Sequence record: PP328843.1
From: Escherichia phage 215Ecol030PP
Reading direction: 5' to 3' (one strand)
DNA length: 64,000 bases
Shown piece by piece: positions 17,830 through 26,959 of the stretch (within the stretch, counting starts at the first letter, position 1; each line of letters starts with the position of its first letter). The notes beneath the pieces were generated by a model, which was given only the letters and a program-made list of their open reading frames with translations, did not search any database and had not been told where the DNA came from. The translations under genes were made by a program, and so were the position numbers.

Positions 17830-18030
17830 ATGGTACAAAAATTAATGGCACTTGTTGATGCCATAAAAGGTAATAAGAAACGTATAGCTTTTACTATTTC
17901 TGCTATGATAGGAATTTTACTCTGGAACTTTATTTTATCACCTGTTGCAATTGCACATGGTATTAATATTCCAATAGTTACTCTTGATACATTCGTAGAT
18001 TTAGCATTTGCTTTAGTTGGGTTAATTTAA
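17830..18030 (+). CDS. plus-strand small membrane protein (two predicted TM helices), 66 aa
   Basis: Only plus-strand ORF outside minus-strand coding sequence; strong SD AAAGGAGGA at 17818-17826 then ATG at 17830; hydrophobic segments. Confidence 0.4.
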   Translation: MVQKLMALVDAIKGNKKRIAFTISAMIGILLWNFILSPVAIAHGINIPIVTLDTFVDLAFALVGLI

Positions 18031-19055
18031 ATCTTAGCATATTTAGATAACCGCATTTTAGCCATCAACCCCTGGGCAATATTATTTTTCATATATTCCA
18101 TAATTTGTTCAGGGGTTGCACCTTCCTTTCTAATCATATCATTGACGTCTTTTGATTTCCAGGGAGATTTATCCCAAAACATAACCCTTTCTCCTGCATC
18201 AACTAATTTAGTCATTCGTTTAATAGTGTCAGGGTGACGAGGTTCATTATCTAAAACCCACACTCGTCTATCTTTAAATGGAACAACTTCTAGGTCTAAT
18301 TGACCACCCGTAATAGCTATACCATTTTCAATAAAAAGCGAATCTATAGGTCCTTCTAGAACATATACATCGCCATCTTTAACTCGTTCAACTCCATAGA
18401 TTTTTGTTGCCTCAGGATAAGCTTTAATGGTGATATATTTTTGAGGAGCATCTTTCTTTAATGCGCGTCCTTGAAAAGACTCAGCCTTTCCGTCAGCATT
18501 ATAAATTGGAATAACAAGACGAGGCTCAGAAATTTCCTTTTTGTATGTTCCCGGTGCGATGCTATTAACTAATTTAGGCCATTCGGTTGTAAACCAAAGA
18601 TATTTCCATTTATCCTTTGGAATACAACGAGCTTTTACATATTTTATAATTGGATGGTCTTCCGCCAGTTTATCTAATCTAACACATGACGGAAGAGATT
18701 TAATTATTTTCTTCTCAGGTTGTTTAGGAAGTTCTTTAGGTTTTTCTACTGGACGACTTTTACCTTTTTCTTTTCTTATTTCAAAGATATACTCACGATA
18801 TAAATCAGGTTCAAACTCCTTTAAATATATTCCGATTGGTACGTGATAGTTACAGTTATAACAATGAATATTTCCTTCATTATTATCACCATAATACCAT
18901 CCACGAGCTTTATTCTGATCGGTTTTTGAATCTCCACAAACGGGGCATCTAAACCGCAATTTAAAAGTTGAACTATTATTTACTTGTGTGAATTTAGGTA
19001 AATGAGCCAATGCACGATACGCAAACTCATTATCAATCCAAGGTATTGATGACAT
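18027..19055 (-). CDS. 61: DNA primase gp61, 342 aa
   Basis: N-terminal zinc ribbon CPVCGDSK...CYNCNYH and Toprim domain; ATG at 19053-19055. Confidence 0.92.
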   Translation of the reverse strand: MSSIPWIDNEFAYRALAHLPKFTQVNNSSTFKLRFRCPVCGDSKTDQNKARGWYYGDNNEGNIHCYNCNYHVPIGIYLKEFEPDLYREYIFEIRKEKGKSRPVEKPKELPKQPEKKIIKSLPSCVRLDKLAEDHPIIKYVKARCIPKDKWKYLWFTTEWPKLVNSIAPGTYKKEISEPRLVIPIYNADGKAESFQGRALKKDAPQKYITIKAYPEATKIYGVERVKDGDVYVLEGPIDSLFIENGIAITGGQLDLEVVPFKDRRVWVLDNEPRHPDTIKRMTKLVDAGERVMFWDKSPWKSKDVNDMIRKEGATPEQIMEYMKNNIAQGLMAKMRLSKYAKI

Positions 19056-19057
19056 TT

Positions 19058-19222
19058 TTACTCTTCTTTTTCTTTAGATTCCTCTTTTTTCTTTTTAGGA
19101 ATCTGTTCAGGACCTTTATTTACTACAGCACCTGATGTTGTTCCAGTAGAGATATTTTCAGGATTACCACCTGAATCTCCAGCAACCATATCTTCTTTAA
19201 TAAATTCTTTATATGTTTTCAT
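19058..19222 (-). CDS. small hypothetical protein (61.1 position), 54 aa (not in ORF track)
   Basis: Own translation MKTYKEFIKEDMVAGDSGGNPENISTGTTSGAVVNKGPEQIPKKKKEESKEKEE; fills the gap between two genes. Confidence 0.45.
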   Translation of the reverse strand: MKTYKEFIKEDMVAGDSGGNPENISTGTTSGAVVNKGPEQIPKKKKEESKEKEE

Positions 19223-19223
19223 A

Positions 19224-19868
19224 TTAACCTCTATTCATAAAAGCATTAAAAATTTGGTCATCAATAGAAACATTTACTTTAGACTGTTTTTCTGCTGGTA
19301 ATTCGTATCCACACACTACAATTTTTTCATCGATATCAAAATATACAGAAGCAATACGATTAATGTTATTTTCAGTTAAGTCTAAATCAACATCAACATC
19401 TTTTTGATCTACACTTAAAGGATAACTAATGCGGGTTATTTTATTATCTTTAACAAAGAGTCCGCCAACATACTCTGTACTACGTTTGAAGTTTACACGT
19501 TTCCGAATTGAAAGATATGATACATCTTTACCGTGAGCTCGGCTCATAGGACATAATGAATAGCTAGAATAAGAGATGTCAAATCCTACACCTTCAATAT
19601 GAGCCAACGCGTCATGATTAAACCAATTATAATCATATGCCAAATCCATTATATTGTAATATGTGAAAGGCACAGGATTAACATCATATGTTGTACCTTT
19701 AAAATCTGCCCAGGCAACGATTTCGTTATCTTTAACAATTACAAAAATTACACCAATATGATATCCGTTATTATTTTCATTCGGCGTTATATTATAACAT
19801 TGTGCATCAGGAAATTTACCGTATTTAAACGGTGGATTTTTGTGCATATAATAAATCATATTATTCAC
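19224..19868 (-). CDS. hypothetical protein (61.2 position), 214 aa
   Basis: ORF in gene train. Confidence 0.55.
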   Translation of the reverse strand: MNNMIYYMHKNPPFKYGKFPDAQCYNITPNENNNGYHIGVIFVIVKDNEIVAWADFKGTTYDVNPVPFTYYNIMDLAYDYNWFNHDALAHIEGVGFDISYSSYSLCPMSRAHGKDVSYLSIRKRVNFKRSTEYVGGLFVKDNKITRISYPLSVDQKDVDVDLDLTENNINRIASVYFDIDEKIVVCGYELPAEKQSKVNVSIDDQIFNAFMNRG

Positions 19869-20154
19869 CTGTGATTTCGGTTACGATATTTTTGTTATTA
19901 AAGTTTTTATCGCAATACAGAACATAATTATACTGCATTACACCACCAGACTTAAGCTGTTTTTGTACTTCAGCTTTCATTTCAGGACGATCGCGCTCAA
20001 CGATATTCATAATATCCGCTTCAATTTGAGTTTCAACTTCAGTCTGATCCGCAGTCATAGACCATTCACACAAATCTTTATCATAACCTGCCATAGCAGG
20101 CTGAGCAGCACAAGAAGCTAAAGCAAAAATTGTAGCAAAAATAAATTTTTTCAT
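19861..20154 (-). CDS. sp: Spackle periplasmic protein Sp, 97 aa
   Basis: Signal peptide MKKFIFATIFALASCAAQPAMA; size and position match T4 sp. Confidence 0.8.
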   Translation of the reverse strand: MKKFIFATIFALASCAAQPAMAGYDKDLCEWSMTADQTEVETQIEADIMNIVERDRPEMKAEVQKQLKSGGVMQYNYVLYCDKNFNNKNIVTEITGE

Positions 20155-20214
20155 GATAATCTCCTCAGTAGTTTATGTTTATATAGTATCTCAATTTCCA
20201 ACAAAAGTAAATAG

Positions 20215-20472
20215 TTATTTTAAAACTTCTGCATAATCACATGTTACAAACTGTTTCTCTAACTTAACGATCTTACGAAAATATCTTTTGCATTGACGAA
20301 TCTGCCTCTTCGTAGGACGTACAGCAAACTTAATAAATTCCACTCGACCAAATGGAGGACTTTCTTCTGCTGGAATATCTAGCACCAATTCCCATGTATC
20401 TGCAATAAGTGCTTTGAATTGCGTATTTTTCCTGACGTTATATGGAGTAGGTTTAAATAAAACAATATGCAT
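20215..20472 (-). CDS. hypothetical basic protein (61.4 position), 85 aa
   Basis: ORF immediately upstream of dmd; this position is, from memory, where a ToxN-inhibiting factor has been reported in T4 (not verifiable here). Confidence 0.55.
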   Translation of the reverse strand: MHIVLFKPTPYNVRKNTQFKALIADTWELVLDIPAEESPPFGRVEFIKFAVRPTKRQIRQCKRYFRKIVKLEKQFVTCDYAEVLK

Positions 20473-20473
20473 A

Positions 20474-20656
20474 TTATCCTCGGCAATCTACTTCACATAC
20501 TTTCTTGTCATCAATGAAAGCTTTAACTAATGCTTTATTAACTTCAGCATATTGAGTAGTAGCCCATTGAACGTCATCTTTCATCATTGTGATTTCTTTA
20601 GTAAACATGCTTTCATTCTTAAACCACCCCATAAAAACTACCTTTACCAATTCCAT
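20474..20656 (-). CDS. dmd: Dmd, discriminator of mRNA degradation (antitoxin against RnlA/LsoA), 60 aa
   Basis: Sequence MELVKVVFMGWFKNESMFTKEITMMKDDVQWATTQYAEV... recognised as T4 Dmd; SD GAGGAG upstream. Confidence 0.85.
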   Translation of the reverse strand: MELVKVVFMGWFKNESMFTKEITMMKDDVQWATTQYAEVNKALVKAFIDDKKVCEVDCRG

Positions 20657-20678
20657 AACAATCTCCTCATTTAACCAA

Positions 20679-20716
20679 CAAGACTACTATACCATAGTCT
20701 TGTCAGCTTGTAAACT
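20679..20716 (-). promoter_or_regulatory. T4-type early promoter for dmd, -10 region enclosed by a 9-bp inverted repeat
   Basis: Plus strand acaagacta-ctatacca-tagtcttgt then gtaaac at 20711-20716. Confidence 0.5.
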
Positions 20717-22142
20717 AAAATTTTAATTCATTTGCCAAAGCATCTAACTGAGCTCGAGTGGATTCATTTCTTTGATAGCGATTCTGCTCAGCCTGAATCT
20801 GTTGTGAACCTGCTACTTCACTCACTTCTGTTGGAGTAGAATCTTGTTCAATTTCTACCCATTTTTGATTTCCTTTTTGAACACCCATCAAAAACTTATT
20901 CCATTTATTCTTATCGCCATATCGTGATTTGATTTGCTTAATGAGTTGTTGTTCAGCAGCTGCTAGCTCCTCGGTTTCAATGACCGCAAGCATAAAATCA
21001 GCTGTTGCTGGAAGACCAGCAGATTCTGCGATATCACTCATGTTAACATCAGAAGAGTCCCAAGCTTGTTTACCGACCTGTGCTGCAGTCCAAAGAACAG
21101 TTTCGGTTTCAACAGCCAGAGCACGCAATTCCTCTGCAATAGCTTTAACAGTTGTGTAACTATTTTCTGAATAAACTCTAATGCGGCAAGATTTACAAAT
21201 ACCCAGATAGTCGACAATAATGATTGTTGGAACAAAATTCTTTTTGAGCTTCAATTCGTTTAAAAGTGATCGAAATGTATTAGCATCTGCTCCACCAGTA
21301 GGATATTGTTTAACGATTAAACGACCAAGAGTAGATTTCTCACGCCATTTTTCCATTTTTCCTTTATACTCAGCGTAAGAAATATGCCCATCATCAATGT
21401 CATCAAGAGAAACATCAAGCATATTAGCATCAATACGCTTAGCACAGACTTCTTCTGCCATTTCCATGGAAATGTAAAGAACATTATGACCAAGCTGCAA
21501 ATAATCTGCTGCTAATGAACAAAGTCCTAATGATTTACCAACGTTAACGCCAGCCATTAAAACGTTCAGTGTTCCAGTCTCAGCTCCGCCTTTAGTAATT
21601 TTGTTTAGAATTCTGAGTTTAAATGGAACCTTACGAGCTTTATTCATATAAGATAGCCAACGCGCTTCATAGTCATCCATCCAATCATGACCAACGTAGC
21701 TATCAAATGAAATTGATAATGCTTGGCGCATGATGTCAGGAATAGCACCAACATCTGGCATTTTCTTATTTCGTTTTTCCGGAGGAAGTTCAGCATTAGT
21801 TTGAATTTCGATTATTTTAGACGTAGCATTAAACATCGCCCTTTGCTGAACATATTTTTCTGTTTCTTTTACTAACCAGCTGTGGTCTTCCGGAGAATCA
21901 GCTAGTTTTGAAATAAGTGTTTTTACACCAGAATATTCTGTTTCAGTAAATGAACTATTTTCTAATGCAACATTTAACGCATTAATAGATGGAACGCTAT
22001 GATACTCATTAACATGGGATTTAATTAATTTGAATGTATTTTTAGCTGGACCACTTTCAAAATATTCTGAATCCATATATGGCCAAACTTTTGAAAAATA
22101 AGCTTGATCAAATATGAGATGAGAAAGAATAATTTCTACCAC
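20715..22142 (-). CDS. 41: replicative DNA helicase gp41 (DnaB-like), 475 aa
   Basis: DnaB-family Walker A/B motifs; apparent GTG start at 22140-22142. Confidence 0.93.
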   Translation of the reverse strand: MVEIILSHLIFDQAYFSKVWPYMDSEYFESGPAKNTFKLIKSHVNEYHSVPSINALNVALENSSFTETEYSGVKTLISKLADSPEDHSWLVKETEKYVQQRAMFNATSKIIEIQTNAELPPEKRNKKMPDVGAIPDIMRQALSISFDSYVGHDWMDDYEARWLSYMNKARKVPFKLRILNKITKGGAETGTLNVLMAGVNVGKSLGLCSLAADYLQLGHNVLYISMEMAEEVCAKRIDANMLDVSLDDIDDGHISYAEYKGKMEKWREKSTLGRLIVKQYPTGGADANTFRSLLNELKLKKNFVPTIIIVDYLGICKSCRIRVYSENSYTTVKAIAEELRALAVETETVLWTAAQVGKQAWDSSDVNMSDIAESAGLPATADFMLAVIETEELAAAEQQLIKQIKSRYGDKNKWNKFLMGVQKGNQKWVEIEQDSTPTEVSEVAGSQQIQAEQNRYQRNESTRAQLDALANELKF

Positions 22143-22151
22143 ACTTACTCC

Positions 22152-22514
22152 TTAAAAGAATTTAAATTTTTTCTTTGACCTTTTATTAAATGCATCTTGT
22201 AGTTGCATTGTAATACATTTTTCTACATGAGGAGCTAACTCAGCTTTTCTTTCTTGGTCAAGAACAGCAAAGTCCATTACAACCTTTCCATCAACCCAAT
22301 CCAGTTTTGTTACATACACTATATGTGTAGAACCATCTTCTAGTTTAATGACAATCTCCTGGATAACATTTTCCATAGCGGATTTAATTATCTTAAGAGA
22401 CTCATTAAAAAGACGTTCTTTTCTTTCTTCTTCCCCCTCCGAAGAGGGGGATTCGTCGATAATTTCTAGATCTAAGTCTAAATCATCTTTATTCATTAAA
22501 TTCTTCCATATCAC
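22152..22514 (-). CDS. 40: gp40 head assembly protein (by position), up to 120 aa
   Basis: ORF between 41 and uvsX; track start is GTG, alternative ATG at 22494-22496. Confidence 0.6.
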   Translation of the reverse strand: MIWKNLMNKDDLDLDLEIIDESPSSEGEEERKERLFNESLKIIKSAMENVIQEIVIKLEDGSTHIVYVTKLDWVDGKVVMDFAVLDQERKAELAPHVEKCITMQLQDAFNKRSKKKFKFF

Positions 22515-23664
22515 TTAACTGTTCGAGGTCAGTTTCTAAATCAGCTGCTGATTTACTTTTACTTTCTGGAGATTTAAATTTTTCAACCTTTGAGTTAATC
22601 AATTCATCAACTTCAGCTTCAACAATTTCATTACTATCAATAGCACCTAACTGATAAGCACGTTTAATAGCATCTCGGAATGGTTGATGCTTAAATAAAG
22701 GACCCCAGAATGTAGTGCAGTTGGTATCTTTTGCACGCCAAGATTTTTCTTCGCGAATCATCTCGCCGGTTTCTTCGTCAAGAAATTCACGAGCATACCA
22801 GCCATTTTTAGGTTTTACTACAAATCCTAATTCAAGAGCCATATCTAACAATCCAGAATAAGGATCGATACCACCGTCAAATTTAACATCAATAAAGAAT
22901 TTACTTTTTTCTTTGACGGTACGAGATTTTTCTACATTTAGAACAAATTGATACCCCTGAAGATCAGAACCATCTTTAATCTGACGTTTACCGATAATGA
23001 ATACGGTATCAGCTGAATACATCGGTCCAGTACCACCTCCCATAACTGTTTTACTAAACATTTCTTGTGTTTCGTATGTATGGTTAATAGCAATACATGG
23101 AATATTTTTAGTACTAAAATAGGGAGTTACGATACGAAATAAGCTTTTCATTGTTTTAGCTCTAGTCATATCACTAACAACTTTTTCATTTAAAGCATCT
23201 TCAGTTTCTTTCTTAGAAGCTAAGTTACCAAGTGAATCGATAAAAACGACTACCTTTTCGCCGCGTTCAATTGCATCCAATTGATTAACCATGTCAATAC
23301 GTAATTGCTCAAGTGATTGAACCGGAGTATGAATTACTCGTTCTGGATCGACTCCCATAGACCGCAAATAAGCAGGAGTAATACCAAATTCACTATCATA
23401 AAACAAACATACTGCATCAGGATATTGACGCATGTAAGATGACACCATTGTTAATCCAAAGTTTGATTTAAATGATTTTGATGGACCTGCCAAAATTAAC
23501 AGACCAGATTGCATACCACCAGTAATTTCACCAGAAAGTGCAATATTCATCATAGGAATTTTTGTTCGAACTACATCTTTTTCATTAAAGAATTTAGATG
23601 CTGTTAATTCTGCAGTCAATTTAGAAGTAGAAGCTTTAATCAAACGAGATTTTAAATCAGACAT
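22489..23664 (-). CDS. uvsX: UvsX recombinase (RecA-like), 391 aa
   Basis: RecA fold Walker A (GPSKSFKS); ATG at 23662-23664. Confidence 0.93.
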   Translation of the reverse strand: MSDLKSRLIKASTSKLTAELTASKFFNEKDVVRTKIPMMNIALSGEITGGMQSGLLILAGPSKSFKSNFGLTMVSSYMRQYPDAVCLFYDSEFGITPAYLRSMGVDPERVIHTPVQSLEQLRIDMVNQLDAIERGEKVVVFIDSLGNLASKKETEDALNEKVVSDMTRAKTMKSLFRIVTPYFSTKNIPCIAINHTYETQEMFSKTVMGGGTGPMYSADTVFIIGKRQIKDGSDLQGYQFVLNVEKSRTVKEKSKFFIDVKFDGGIDPYSGLLDMALELGFVVKPKNGWYAREFLDEETGEMIREEKSWRAKDTNCTTFWGPLFKHQPFRDAIKRAYQLGAIDSNEIVEAEVDELINSKVEKFKSPESKSKSAADLETDLEQLSDMEEFNE

Positions 23665-23672
23665 ATAATACC

Positions 23673-24338
23673 TTATAGTAGTGTTCTTGTTCCACGAAAT
23701 ACTTCGAGCATTCTTGCATAAGATTTATTTGGAAATCCAGCTTCAATTGCTAATTTTTTAAGCTTAATAGCACCGGGTTTTCCAGAGTTTTCCCATATTT
23801 CTTTAATCTTTTCAATGTTATCCCATATTATTGGGTCACGTTTATGTGATGGTTTATTTCTATTATAACCATATGGATTATTAAGCAAAGCTTCTTTTCG
23901 TTTTGCTTTAGTTTCTTCTGACTGCTTTTTGCCTAGCTGGGCTTTCCGGCAAACATCACTAAATCCAAGATGTTTTGGTTTTCCTTTTTGAGCTTTTGAA
24001 ATTTTTTCTTTGGTTTCTGATGAAACTCTATAACCAATTCTTCTACCACCCTCTCCACCAATTTTTAAATTATAAGTCATAGGATCATTTACCACATCTA
24101 TTGTTACTAATTCTCTTTCAGCATCACGGGCTGATTTAAAATCTTTATAAAACCCAAGAATGCTTAAATTGAAATTTTTCTTACCATACTTTTTCTTGGC
24201 TTGTGCTAATAAAGTTCCTGACCCCATATAACCATCATTTAAATCATCGGTTGAATGAGTTCCATAGTAAATTTTATTATTAACTAAATTAGTTATAACA
24301 TAAGTATAATTATATTTCTTTTCTTTATGTCTTTTCAT
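23673..24338 (-). CDS. segA: GIY-YIG homing endonuclease SegA-like, about 221 aa
   Basis: GIY-YIG core (YTYVIT ... YYGTH) with repeated basic xxSxExKxK segments; ATG at 24336-24338. Confidence 0.75.
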   Translation of the reverse strand: MKRHKEKKYNYTYVITNLVNNKIYYGTHSTDDLNDGYMGSGTLLAQAKKKYGKKNFNLSILGFYKDFKSARDAERELVTIDVVNDPMTYNLKIGGEGGRRIGYRVSSETKEKISKAQKGKPKHLGFSDVCRKAQLGKKQSEETKAKRKEALLNNPYGYNRNKPSHKRDPIIWDNIEKIKEIWENSGKPGAIKLKKLAIEAGFPNKSYARMLEVFRGTRTLL

Positions 24339-24342
24339 GTCA

Positions 24343-25185
24343 TTAATCAACTGCTATTGGATGAATAGCATTAAACTTATGAAATGCTTCTGATTTTTCT
24401 TTACGCGAAACGCACATGCGAAGAACCTTTAGTGGTTCATCTTCTTCACCCAACGATTTTCGTTTTTCAATATTAGAAGTTTTCCAACGAGCTTGTTCTG
24501 GAAACTCTCTATTGATTTGCTCAAGCGCTCTATTATGTTTAGAATTACTGCGAATTGAACTACACCCACCAGGAGCTTGTGATTTTCCAGATACAACTAG
24601 ATATTTGAACAAGGCCAAATGTGGATAACCTTGATTAATTAAATTGAGAAATGCATACATATCTTCGCATAAATCAATTTTTCCATACCCAATTTGTTCT
24701 GTCGTAAGTTTTCCGAGGTCATACCATGTATTCGTGAATCCATATGAGTTTTCACGATAATTACCCCAAGATGAAGTAATTTTAAAAATTGGTAGACGAG
24801 CATGACCGTGATAATACCCGCAATCCATGGCATCCTCAACATATTGAATCAATTCATAGAACTGTTCACGAGTTAATTGATTAATTTTATCTACGCGCCG
24901 TTTATCGTCTCTCTTTCGTATTGAACTCATACGAATAGTAGTATCATCATCAATCATCCATATTCGTTGACCTGCATACATATCAGTAATTGCTTTACGA
25001 GTACCGGAAATTCCGTTTACATCATCAGGAATAGTTACAATTTTAGCTCTAGACCCATAGGCATCATAATAAGCTTTTTCTTCATGTTCACGCACTACAA
25101 TATGGGGTTCATAATCAGTCGGAAACATATCAAGGGCAGAAACTGCCCCTACACGTTGATAGCTCGGAATTACGAATTGAATCAT
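24343..25185 (-). CDS. GT-A type (DxD) glycosyltransferase, 280 aa; candidate DNA glucosyl-HMC glucosyltransferase occupying the T4 beta-gt locus
   Basis: DxD motif IWMIDDDTT; lies between segA and gene 42 where T4 carries the 351-aa GT-B beta-glucosyltransferase. Confidence 0.6.
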   Translation of the reverse strand: MIQFVIPSYQRVGAVSALDMFPTDYEPHIVVREHEEKAYYDAYGSRAKIVTIPDDVNGISGTRKAITDMYAGQRIWMIDDDTTIRMSSIRKRDDKRRVDKINQLTREQFYELIQYVEDAMDCGYYHGHARLPIFKITSSWGNYRENSYGFTNTWYDLGKLTTEQIGYGKIDLCEDMYAFLNLINQGYPHLALFKYLVVSGKSQAPGGCSSIRSNSKHNRALEQINREFPEQARWKTSNIEKRKSLGEEDEPLKVLRMCVSRKEKSEAFHKFNAIHPIAVD

Positions 25186-25823
25186 TTAAGTGCCTTACAT
25201 TTATCAAAATGGTATCTTGTCATATTTGGCCCACGTCCTTTTAGTCCGCAATGCGGACATATTTTTTCTATCAAATTATGAGGTTTTCCTTTACGATTTT
25301 TAGACATCGTTTCTTTAATTATTTTAGCTTTTTCTACGCCAAAAATTTCTTCATAAGTTTTACCAGAATTTTCCTTGGCTCGATTTATAATTCCATATGC
25401 CTGCTCATTTTTACCATACATTGGATTACCTTCGCCTTTCATTCTTTTAGAATGATCAGGACGCTTGATTCCACGAAAGGCATTTCCGCACTTATATCTT
25501 TCTTCTGGAGATAGTTTTTTACCGTACATTCCATTTAATTTGCCTGGAAAACTTCCTCCCCATGCTTCATTCTTTAAATTATATGAATCCGGACAATTAG
25601 CAGCATCTAAACAAGTTAAAATAATTTCTTCAACCTGTCTAAACATTGGTCCTTCATATAATATTTCTTTATTAAAGGATTTTATTCCATATTTCTTTTT
25701 AACATGTTGCCAAACTACACCCGAACCATCATAATTCGGGTTGTGACCATCATGACTTCCTATATACCACTTTTTAGTTTTAGGATGTTTATACTTATAA
25801 ACATGCGGCACATTTACTTCCAT
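25182..25823 (-). CDS. Seg-like GIY-YIG homing endonuclease with C-terminal zinc finger, 213 aa
   Basis: GIY-YIG core (VYKYKH...KKWYIGSHDG), repeated GKKLSPEER/GKNEQ segments, C-terminal CPHCGLKGRGPNMTRYHFDKC; ATG at 25821-25823. Confidence 0.7.
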   Translation of the reverse strand: MEVNVPHVYKYKHPKTKKWYIGSHDGHNPNYDGSGVVWQHVKKKYGIKSFNKEILYEGPMFRQVEEIILTCLDAANCPDSYNLKNEAWGGSFPGKLNGMYGKKLSPEERYKCGNAFRGIKRPDHSKRMKGEGNPMYGKNEQAYGIINRAKENSGKTYEEIFGVEKAKIIKETMSKNRKGKPHNLIEKICPHCGLKGRGPNMTRYHFDKCKALK

Positions 25824-26707: not shown

Positions 26708-26959
26708 TCATTCCTTCTCTCTGATGATAATTACCTGATTTGGCTGCGCAGACTTTTTAGTTTCACCTGCAATTGACCAAATAAATGTAATAAACCAACC
26801 AATAATTGACCAGTTAAACAGTAAAGACGTGAAAAAGATTCCTACTGTCGATTTTGACCCACGCATCAAGGCGATAAACCATGGAAGCATGTATATAATA
26901 ATAGCCAACACGCCTGAAACTAAAACCATAAAAATTGAACCTGCTACTAAAGTTTCCAT
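26708..26959 (-). CDS. imm: Imm superinfection immunity membrane protein, 83 aa
   Basis: Two hydrophobic helices; sequence recognised as T4 Imm. Confidence 0.85.
   Translation of the reverse strand: METLVAGSIFMVLVSGVLAIIIYMLPWFIALMRGSKSTVGIFFTSLLFNWSIIGWFITFIWSIAGETKKSAQPNQVIIIREKE

Follow-up and report, generated by a model that had tools for sequence, protein, structure and literature searches.

We found that positions 20215-20656 of the window (the whole 64,000-nt stretch of phage DNA that was analyzed) almost certainly correspond to the dmd-tifA early operon of a T4-like (Tequatrovirus) phage, whose two products are predicted, by analogy with experiments on phages T4 and RB69, to act as phage-supplied antitoxins. 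Judged by its sequence, the 85-aa ORF in this locus is tifA, and its identity to the T4 gene product settles its family membership. The identity, function and mechanism of dmd-tifA, together with the island concept, were already known from work published between 2012 and 2023. The practical gain is one of annotation: a gene carried as 'hypothetical' or as DUF7279 can be confidently relabeled tifA.

The two genes belong to a string of minus-strand genes, given here in the direction of their transcription:

22489-23664, minus strand: uvsX
22152-22514, minus strand: gene 40
20715-22142, minus strand: gene 41, helicase
20474-20656, minus strand: dmd (gene 61.5), 60 aa, MELVKVVFMGWFKNES..., protein antitoxin (from the ORF list and sequence)
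20215-20472, minus strand: tifA (gene 61.4), 85 aa, MHIVLFKPTPYNVRKN..., RNA-binding ToxN inhibitor (function from published T4 work)
19861-20154, minus strand: sp (gene 61.3), 97 aa with a signal peptide (Pfam T4_Spackle, 3.5e-45; PHROG 'spackle periplasmic', 2.7e-47)
19224-19859, minus strand: adfA (gene 61.2), 211 aa from its ATG (Pfam AdfA, 1.4e-125)
19058-19222, minus strand: gene 61.1, 54 aa (PHROG 1823, 7e-34)
18027-19055, minus strand: gene 61, primase

The gene order in the window is that of the annotated T4 record (41 / 61.5 / 61.4 / 61.3 / 61.2 / 61.1 / 61). An earlier, sequence-only reading of this DNA had placed dmd and a small basic ORF at 20474-20656 and 20215-20472; both ORFs are real, have those ends and lie on the minus strand, and the 85-aa product is indeed basic (pI 9.83, with 17 Lys and Arg versus 9 Asp and Glu residues). 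The dmd product matches the Pfam Dmd family over its full length (PF17587, 1.6e-46, residues 1-60 of 60), is identical to T4 Dmd (gp61.5) at 60 of 60 residues and matches PDB entry 5hy3 chain B, 'Antitoxin Dmd' (1.8e-37, 100 % identical). There is no protein-level difference from T4 Dmd, and the dmd gene carries one silent change. According to Otsuka & Yonesaki 2012, as cited in PMC9391042 and PMC11257639, T4 Dmd inhibits the RnlA and LsoA toxins.

The two reading frames are closely coupled. The TAA stop codon of dmd is followed, after a gap of one base (20473), by the ATG of tifA, and the tifA Shine-Dalgarno sequence, GAGGA, lies within the final dmd codons. The dmd gene has its own Shine-Dalgarno sequence (GAGGAG, 6 nt 5′ of the ATG) and is preceded, directly after the gene 41 stop codon, by a strong early-type promoter at 20714-20686 on the minus strand (TTTACA, a 17-nt spacer and TATAGT, with TG before the −10). 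In a consensus scan of positions 19000-21000, this promoter was the best sigma-70-type site (10/12, extended −10), and its sequence is identical in T4, where an early promoter upstream of dmd has been described for the two-gene locus of dmd (61.5) and 61.4 (PMC9391042, eLife 2022). A terminator scan of the same 19000-21000 interval found no terminator-like site. The 1-base gap, the lack of a terminator-like site and the promoter 5′ of dmd are consistent with the proposal of the sequence-only reading that the adjacent downstream ORF shares a transcription unit with dmd. A promoter between tifA and sp has also been mentioned (PMC9391042); our consensus scan of the tifA-sp interval found no convincing promoter there, its lone candidate overlapping the sp start codon.

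A separate feature of the same region is a perfect 15-bp hairpin (G-U pairs included) at 20673-20708 on the minus strand, between the gene 41 stop codon and the dmd start codon and overlapping the −10. Its calculated folding free energy is −18.9 kcal/mol (z = −5.5 versus shuffled sequences), and the window and T4 differ at a single position, which exchanges a G-U for a G-C pair. This hairpin could form only in gene 41 read-through RNA, or as a DNA cruciform, and it may be a transcript-end stabilizer or a processing site.

The identity of tifA rests on a direct comparison with T4. The sequence-only reading had stated that a ToxN-inhibiting factor was described at this position in T4; that factor is the putative 85-aa product of T4 gene 61.4, renamed tifA, for ToxN inhibitory factor A (PMC9391042). 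The comparison with published TifA that it had proposed returned not an absence of identity but 84 of 85 identical residues against the T4 gp61.4 CDS (UniProt Y02A), the sole difference being I83V. The window and T4 TifA share their 85-aa length, the 1-nt gap after dmd, the promoter, the Shine-Dalgarno sequence and all published functional residues (F41, P53, T54, K55, R56 and R59), and the window allele differs by the I83V replacement in the C-terminal extension and by silent changes elsewhere. The tifA product also matches Pfam DUF7279 (2.3e-20; 72.7 bits versus a cut-off of 24.5) and PHROG 2375 (2.4e-38).

At the DNA level, 12 tifA codons differ from those of T4, of which 11 are synonymous and one is a conservative replacement; this ratio of 11 silent to 1 conservative change clearly points to purifying selection on the tifA frame. 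It bears directly on the reading that dmd alone is functional and that the 85-aa frame either is open by chance or is what remains of a decayed gene, to which we give practically no credence. That reading can draw on current annotation, as the homologue is labeled 'hypothetical protein' in essentially all matches listed (JS10 has 'gp61.4 hypothetical protein' and Shigella phage pSs-1 has 'gp50') and the family is still a DUF in Pfam. However, a tblastn search found TifA homologues in 641 phage records, and at least 80 % of the query is covered in 628 of them; the ORF has a Shine-Dalgarno sequence and a start codon coupled to the dmd stop; and function has been experimentally shown for the 99 %-identical T4 protein. 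A chance or remnant ORF is thus already refuted by the conservation pattern and by published genetics. The annotation gap itself has lasted 3-4 years since the function was published, with Pfam keeping DUF7279 and NCBIfam offering no model; a search of NCBIfam gave no match for any of four small proteins.

We examined divergent TifA homologues drawn from GenBank phage records. Those with 33-57 % identity come from Mosigvirus, Dhakavirus and Kanagawavirus, and all are flanked by gene 41 (helicase) and gene 61 (primase), with or without other small genes in the interval. In Mosigvirus, the tifA homologue directly abuts dmd. In two Dhakavirus examples, it is located approximately 140 nt downstream of dmd, the gap in UP19 containing an annotated small ORF. 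In the Kanagawavirus example, dmd is not annotated, and the position of the tifA homologue between helicase and primase is kept. Across homologues that are 33-99 % identical, the motif W-E-L ... RPTKRQIRQ.K...R is invariant, its RPTKRQIRQ portion being found in 7 homologues down to 33 % identity. An IMG/VR protein scan returned only five loci, all near-identical, and did not increase this diversity.

The RB69/Mosigvirus type of TifA resembles the window protein in being 57 % identical over residues 1-70, in the adjacency of dmd and tifA and in its basic helix, RPTKRQIRQ.KR.FRK. Unlike the window protein, the Mosigvirus homologue that we aligned (vB_EcoM_EP32a, 57 %) has H41 instead of F41 and is without the C-terminal extension of about 15 aa. 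RB69 TifA, which is reported to have 56 % identity and to be a stronger ToxN inhibitor (PMC9391042, PMC10853763), entirely lacks this extension, where I83V is found in the window protein.

The predicted shape of TifA is that of an L, composed of a three-stranded beta-sheet and a basic C-terminal helix with a Pro-Thr cap (PMC10853763, NAR 2023). A single-sequence AlphaFold2 model of the window TifA (strands at residues 2-6, 27-30 and 46-49 and a helix at 55-72) loosely resembles this published fold, though it is too uncertain to build on; because its mean pLDDT is 44, we did not use it for fold searches. A PDB sequence search yielded no solved relative of TifA at E ≤ 1.

In published work on the T4 locus, T4 plaquing on toxIN cells and rescue from ToxN toxicity require only tifA, which suffices alone, while dmd does not (PMC9391042). 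In five replicate evolution lines, the dmd-tifA locus was amplified, and in T2, T6 and RB69 the tifA homologues adjoin dmd (PMC9391042). Neutralization of ToxN, together with binding to ToxN and to RNA, has been experimentally shown for the TifA proteins of T4, T2, T6 and RB69 (PMC9391042, PMC10853763). Substitutions in the basic helix or its cap (P53A/T54A or K55A/R56A/R59A) cause the loss of RNA binding, ToxN co-precipitation and rescue altogether, and the ToxN-TifA complex is a large ribonucleoprotein that is enriched in 16S rRNA and excludes toxI (PMC10853763).

Carried over from RB69 TifA and the nearly identical T4 protein, these data suggest how the products of the window's operon would act. 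The host RNA polymerase would transcribe dmd-tifA from the early promoter straight after infection. Dmd would bind and block the RNase toxins RnlA and LsoA, which would otherwise be freed as host transcription is shut off and their labile antitoxins decay. TifA would bind RNA through its Pro-Thr-capped basic C-terminal helix (P53, T54, K55, R56 and R59), while the face formed by its beta-sheet and loop, including residue 41, would contact the ToxN surface that normally holds toxI. ToxN released from toxI would then be sequestered, chiefly on 16S rRNA, as part of an inactive ribonucleoprotein, leaving the phage transcripts uncut. The 16S-trapping step is a model, derived from pull-downs with over-expressed RB69 TifA (PMC10853763).

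The nearest functional counterpart on the host side is toxI, which serves as the RNA antitoxin in ToxIN, a type III system. TifA has been modeled on the ToxN surface that binds toxI, and toxI and TifA are mutually exclusive (PMC10853763). The two differ in nature and share no homology: the host's toxI, an RNA repeat of 36 nt, assembles with ToxN into a closed heterohexamer, and the phage protein TifA depends on bulk RNA and builds large ribonucleoprotein particles.

The same RNA-binding activity admits another reading, in which TifA is mainly a general RNA-binding protein with a housekeeping role in the translation or RNA metabolism of the phage, and inhibits ToxN incidentally, chiefly when over-expressed. 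TifA shows little sequence preference in binding RNA, ssDNA and dsDNA (PMC10853763), plasmid-borne toxIN still restricts wild-type T4 carrying one copy of the gene (PMC9391042), and the basic motif is invariant even in homologues that neutralize no tested ToxN, all of which would fit such a role. A single native copy of tifA is nevertheless reported to be sufficient against chromosomal toxIN, and ToxN co-precipitates with TifA during infection (PMC9391042); moreover, ToxN point mutants in the toxI-binding pocket (K111N/R, Y115H and L118S) specifically escape TifA, and the strength of inhibition is tuned by residue 41, with F41S and F41H inhibiting ToxN more strongly (PMC10853763). Together, these results indicate a specific protein-protein interaction between TifA and ToxN. 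We consider a mainly housekeeping role to be quite improbable and retain the antitoxin reading, which no feature of the sequence contradicts.

The allele at residue 41 allows a prediction about this phage. Since the window TifA carries F41, as in T4, it is expected to be of the weaker inhibitor type, which would be enough against chromosomal toxIN and not enough against plasmid-borne toxIN unless the gene is amplified. Searches of the window with tblastn and blastn found no second copy of the dmd-tifA locus; being single-copy, the phage is without the amplified form seen in evolved, toxIN-resistant T4 clones. Like T4, it is predicted by its F41 allele to overcome chromosomal, though not high-copy, toxIN, which is relevant to choosing or engineering T-even phages for ToxIN-carrying hosts.

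The window is nonetheless not T4 itself. Its best 24-kb matches are Tequatroviruses that are 96-97 % identical, and its interval between uvsX and gene 42 (23673-25823) contains three ORFs:

23673-24350, minus strand: homing-endonuclease-like ORF (GIY-YIG and NUMOD3)
24343-25185, minus strand: beta-glucosyl-HMC-alpha-glucosyltransferase, 280 aa (PHROG 842, 5e-88)
25182-25823, minus strand: homing-endonuclease-like ORF (PHROG 314)

The presence of a beta-glucosyl-HMC-alpha-glucosyltransferase makes the phage similar to T2 and T6, and not to T4, in its DNA glucosylation; the window is a T2/T6-like Tequatrovirus. The glucosyltransferase gene thus has a homing-endonuclease-like neighbor on each side.

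Beyond dmd and tifA, the string contains a third published anti-toxin gene, and all three (dmd, tifA and adfA) are present in the window, clustered between genes 41 and 61. Gene 61.2 is adfA, for anti-DarT factor A, and counters DarTG (PMC9391042, PMC11257639). T4 AdfA (gp61.2) comes from the same gene string as TifA, but the two proteins are unrelated; AdfA has another target, of type IV (DarTG), and its gene lies outside 20215-20656. On the strength of three anti-TA functions directed against three types of TA system, dmd, tifA and adfA were proposed to form an 'anti-TA island' (PMC9391042).

Whether the island label describes the whole string can be weighed against a looser reading, in which a site that tolerates insertions between genes 41 and 61 has collected a mixed string of early accessory genes, and the adjacency of dmd, tifA, sp and adfA does not reflect a shared function. 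The genes found between helicase and primase do vary from genus to genus: Mosigvirus, Dhakavirus and Kanagawavirus have extra small ORFs there, and adfA is replaced or absent in some. Published anti-TA functions, against type II RnlAB/LsoAB, type III ToxIN and type IV DarTG, nevertheless account for three of the five small genes, which argues against a string without a common theme. We regard the looser reading as possible, if somewhat doubtful. It concerns the label only and is compatible with every gene identity given above.

The sequence-only reading had joined sp and imm to dmd and the basic ORF as a counter-defence cluster. This claim holds in part: the anti-TA genes dmd, tifA and adfA are clustered, with sp adjacent, but adfA had been missed, and sp (periplasmic Spackle) and imm are both known from T4 as superinfection-exclusion genes, which act in conflicts of phage versus phage and not against host toxins. 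The position of imm is also distant:

26708-26959: imm (Pfam Imm_superinfect, 7.7e-16), approximately 6 kb from dmd-tifA

Genes 41, 40 and uvsX, the glucosyltransferase block and gene 42 are located in between, and imm has another transcription context. A counter-defence label based on sp and imm was therefore rejected, given their role in superinfection exclusion and the 6 kb that separate imm from the operon. The same two points, that sp is a periplasmic superinfection-exclusion gene and not an anti-toxin, and that imm is so distant, favor the looser, mixed-string reading.

Gene 61.1, which is conserved, closes the series of small genes ahead of the primase gene (61) and is the last uncharacterized one of the anti-TA string. 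Its product, for which we found no Pfam or NCBIfam match, has an acidic N-terminal part and a lysine-rich tail; besides PHROG 1823, it matches a longer family, PHROG 2086, over the C-terminal 46 residues of that family. Position and conservation raise the idea that gene 61.1, or the I83V form of TifA, adds or alters an anti-defense specificity and would extend the island past three antitoxins, and that the hairpin upstream of dmd may couple dmd-tifA to gene 41 read-through; we consider this unlikely, though worth stating.

Two further observations concern the genes downstream of tifA. The longest adfA ORF has as its first codon a GTG (19868), which overlaps the stop codon of sp; the Pfam AdfA match begins at residue 4, which corresponds to the ATG at 19859, making this ATG the likelier start. 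Compared to T4, the sp gene shows 6 replacements, of which five fall in its last 17 codons, and 7 silent changes; the corresponding counts for the adjacent tifA are 1 and 11. This pattern suggests that the C-terminus of Spackle either has undergone diversifying change or lies at a recombination boundary.
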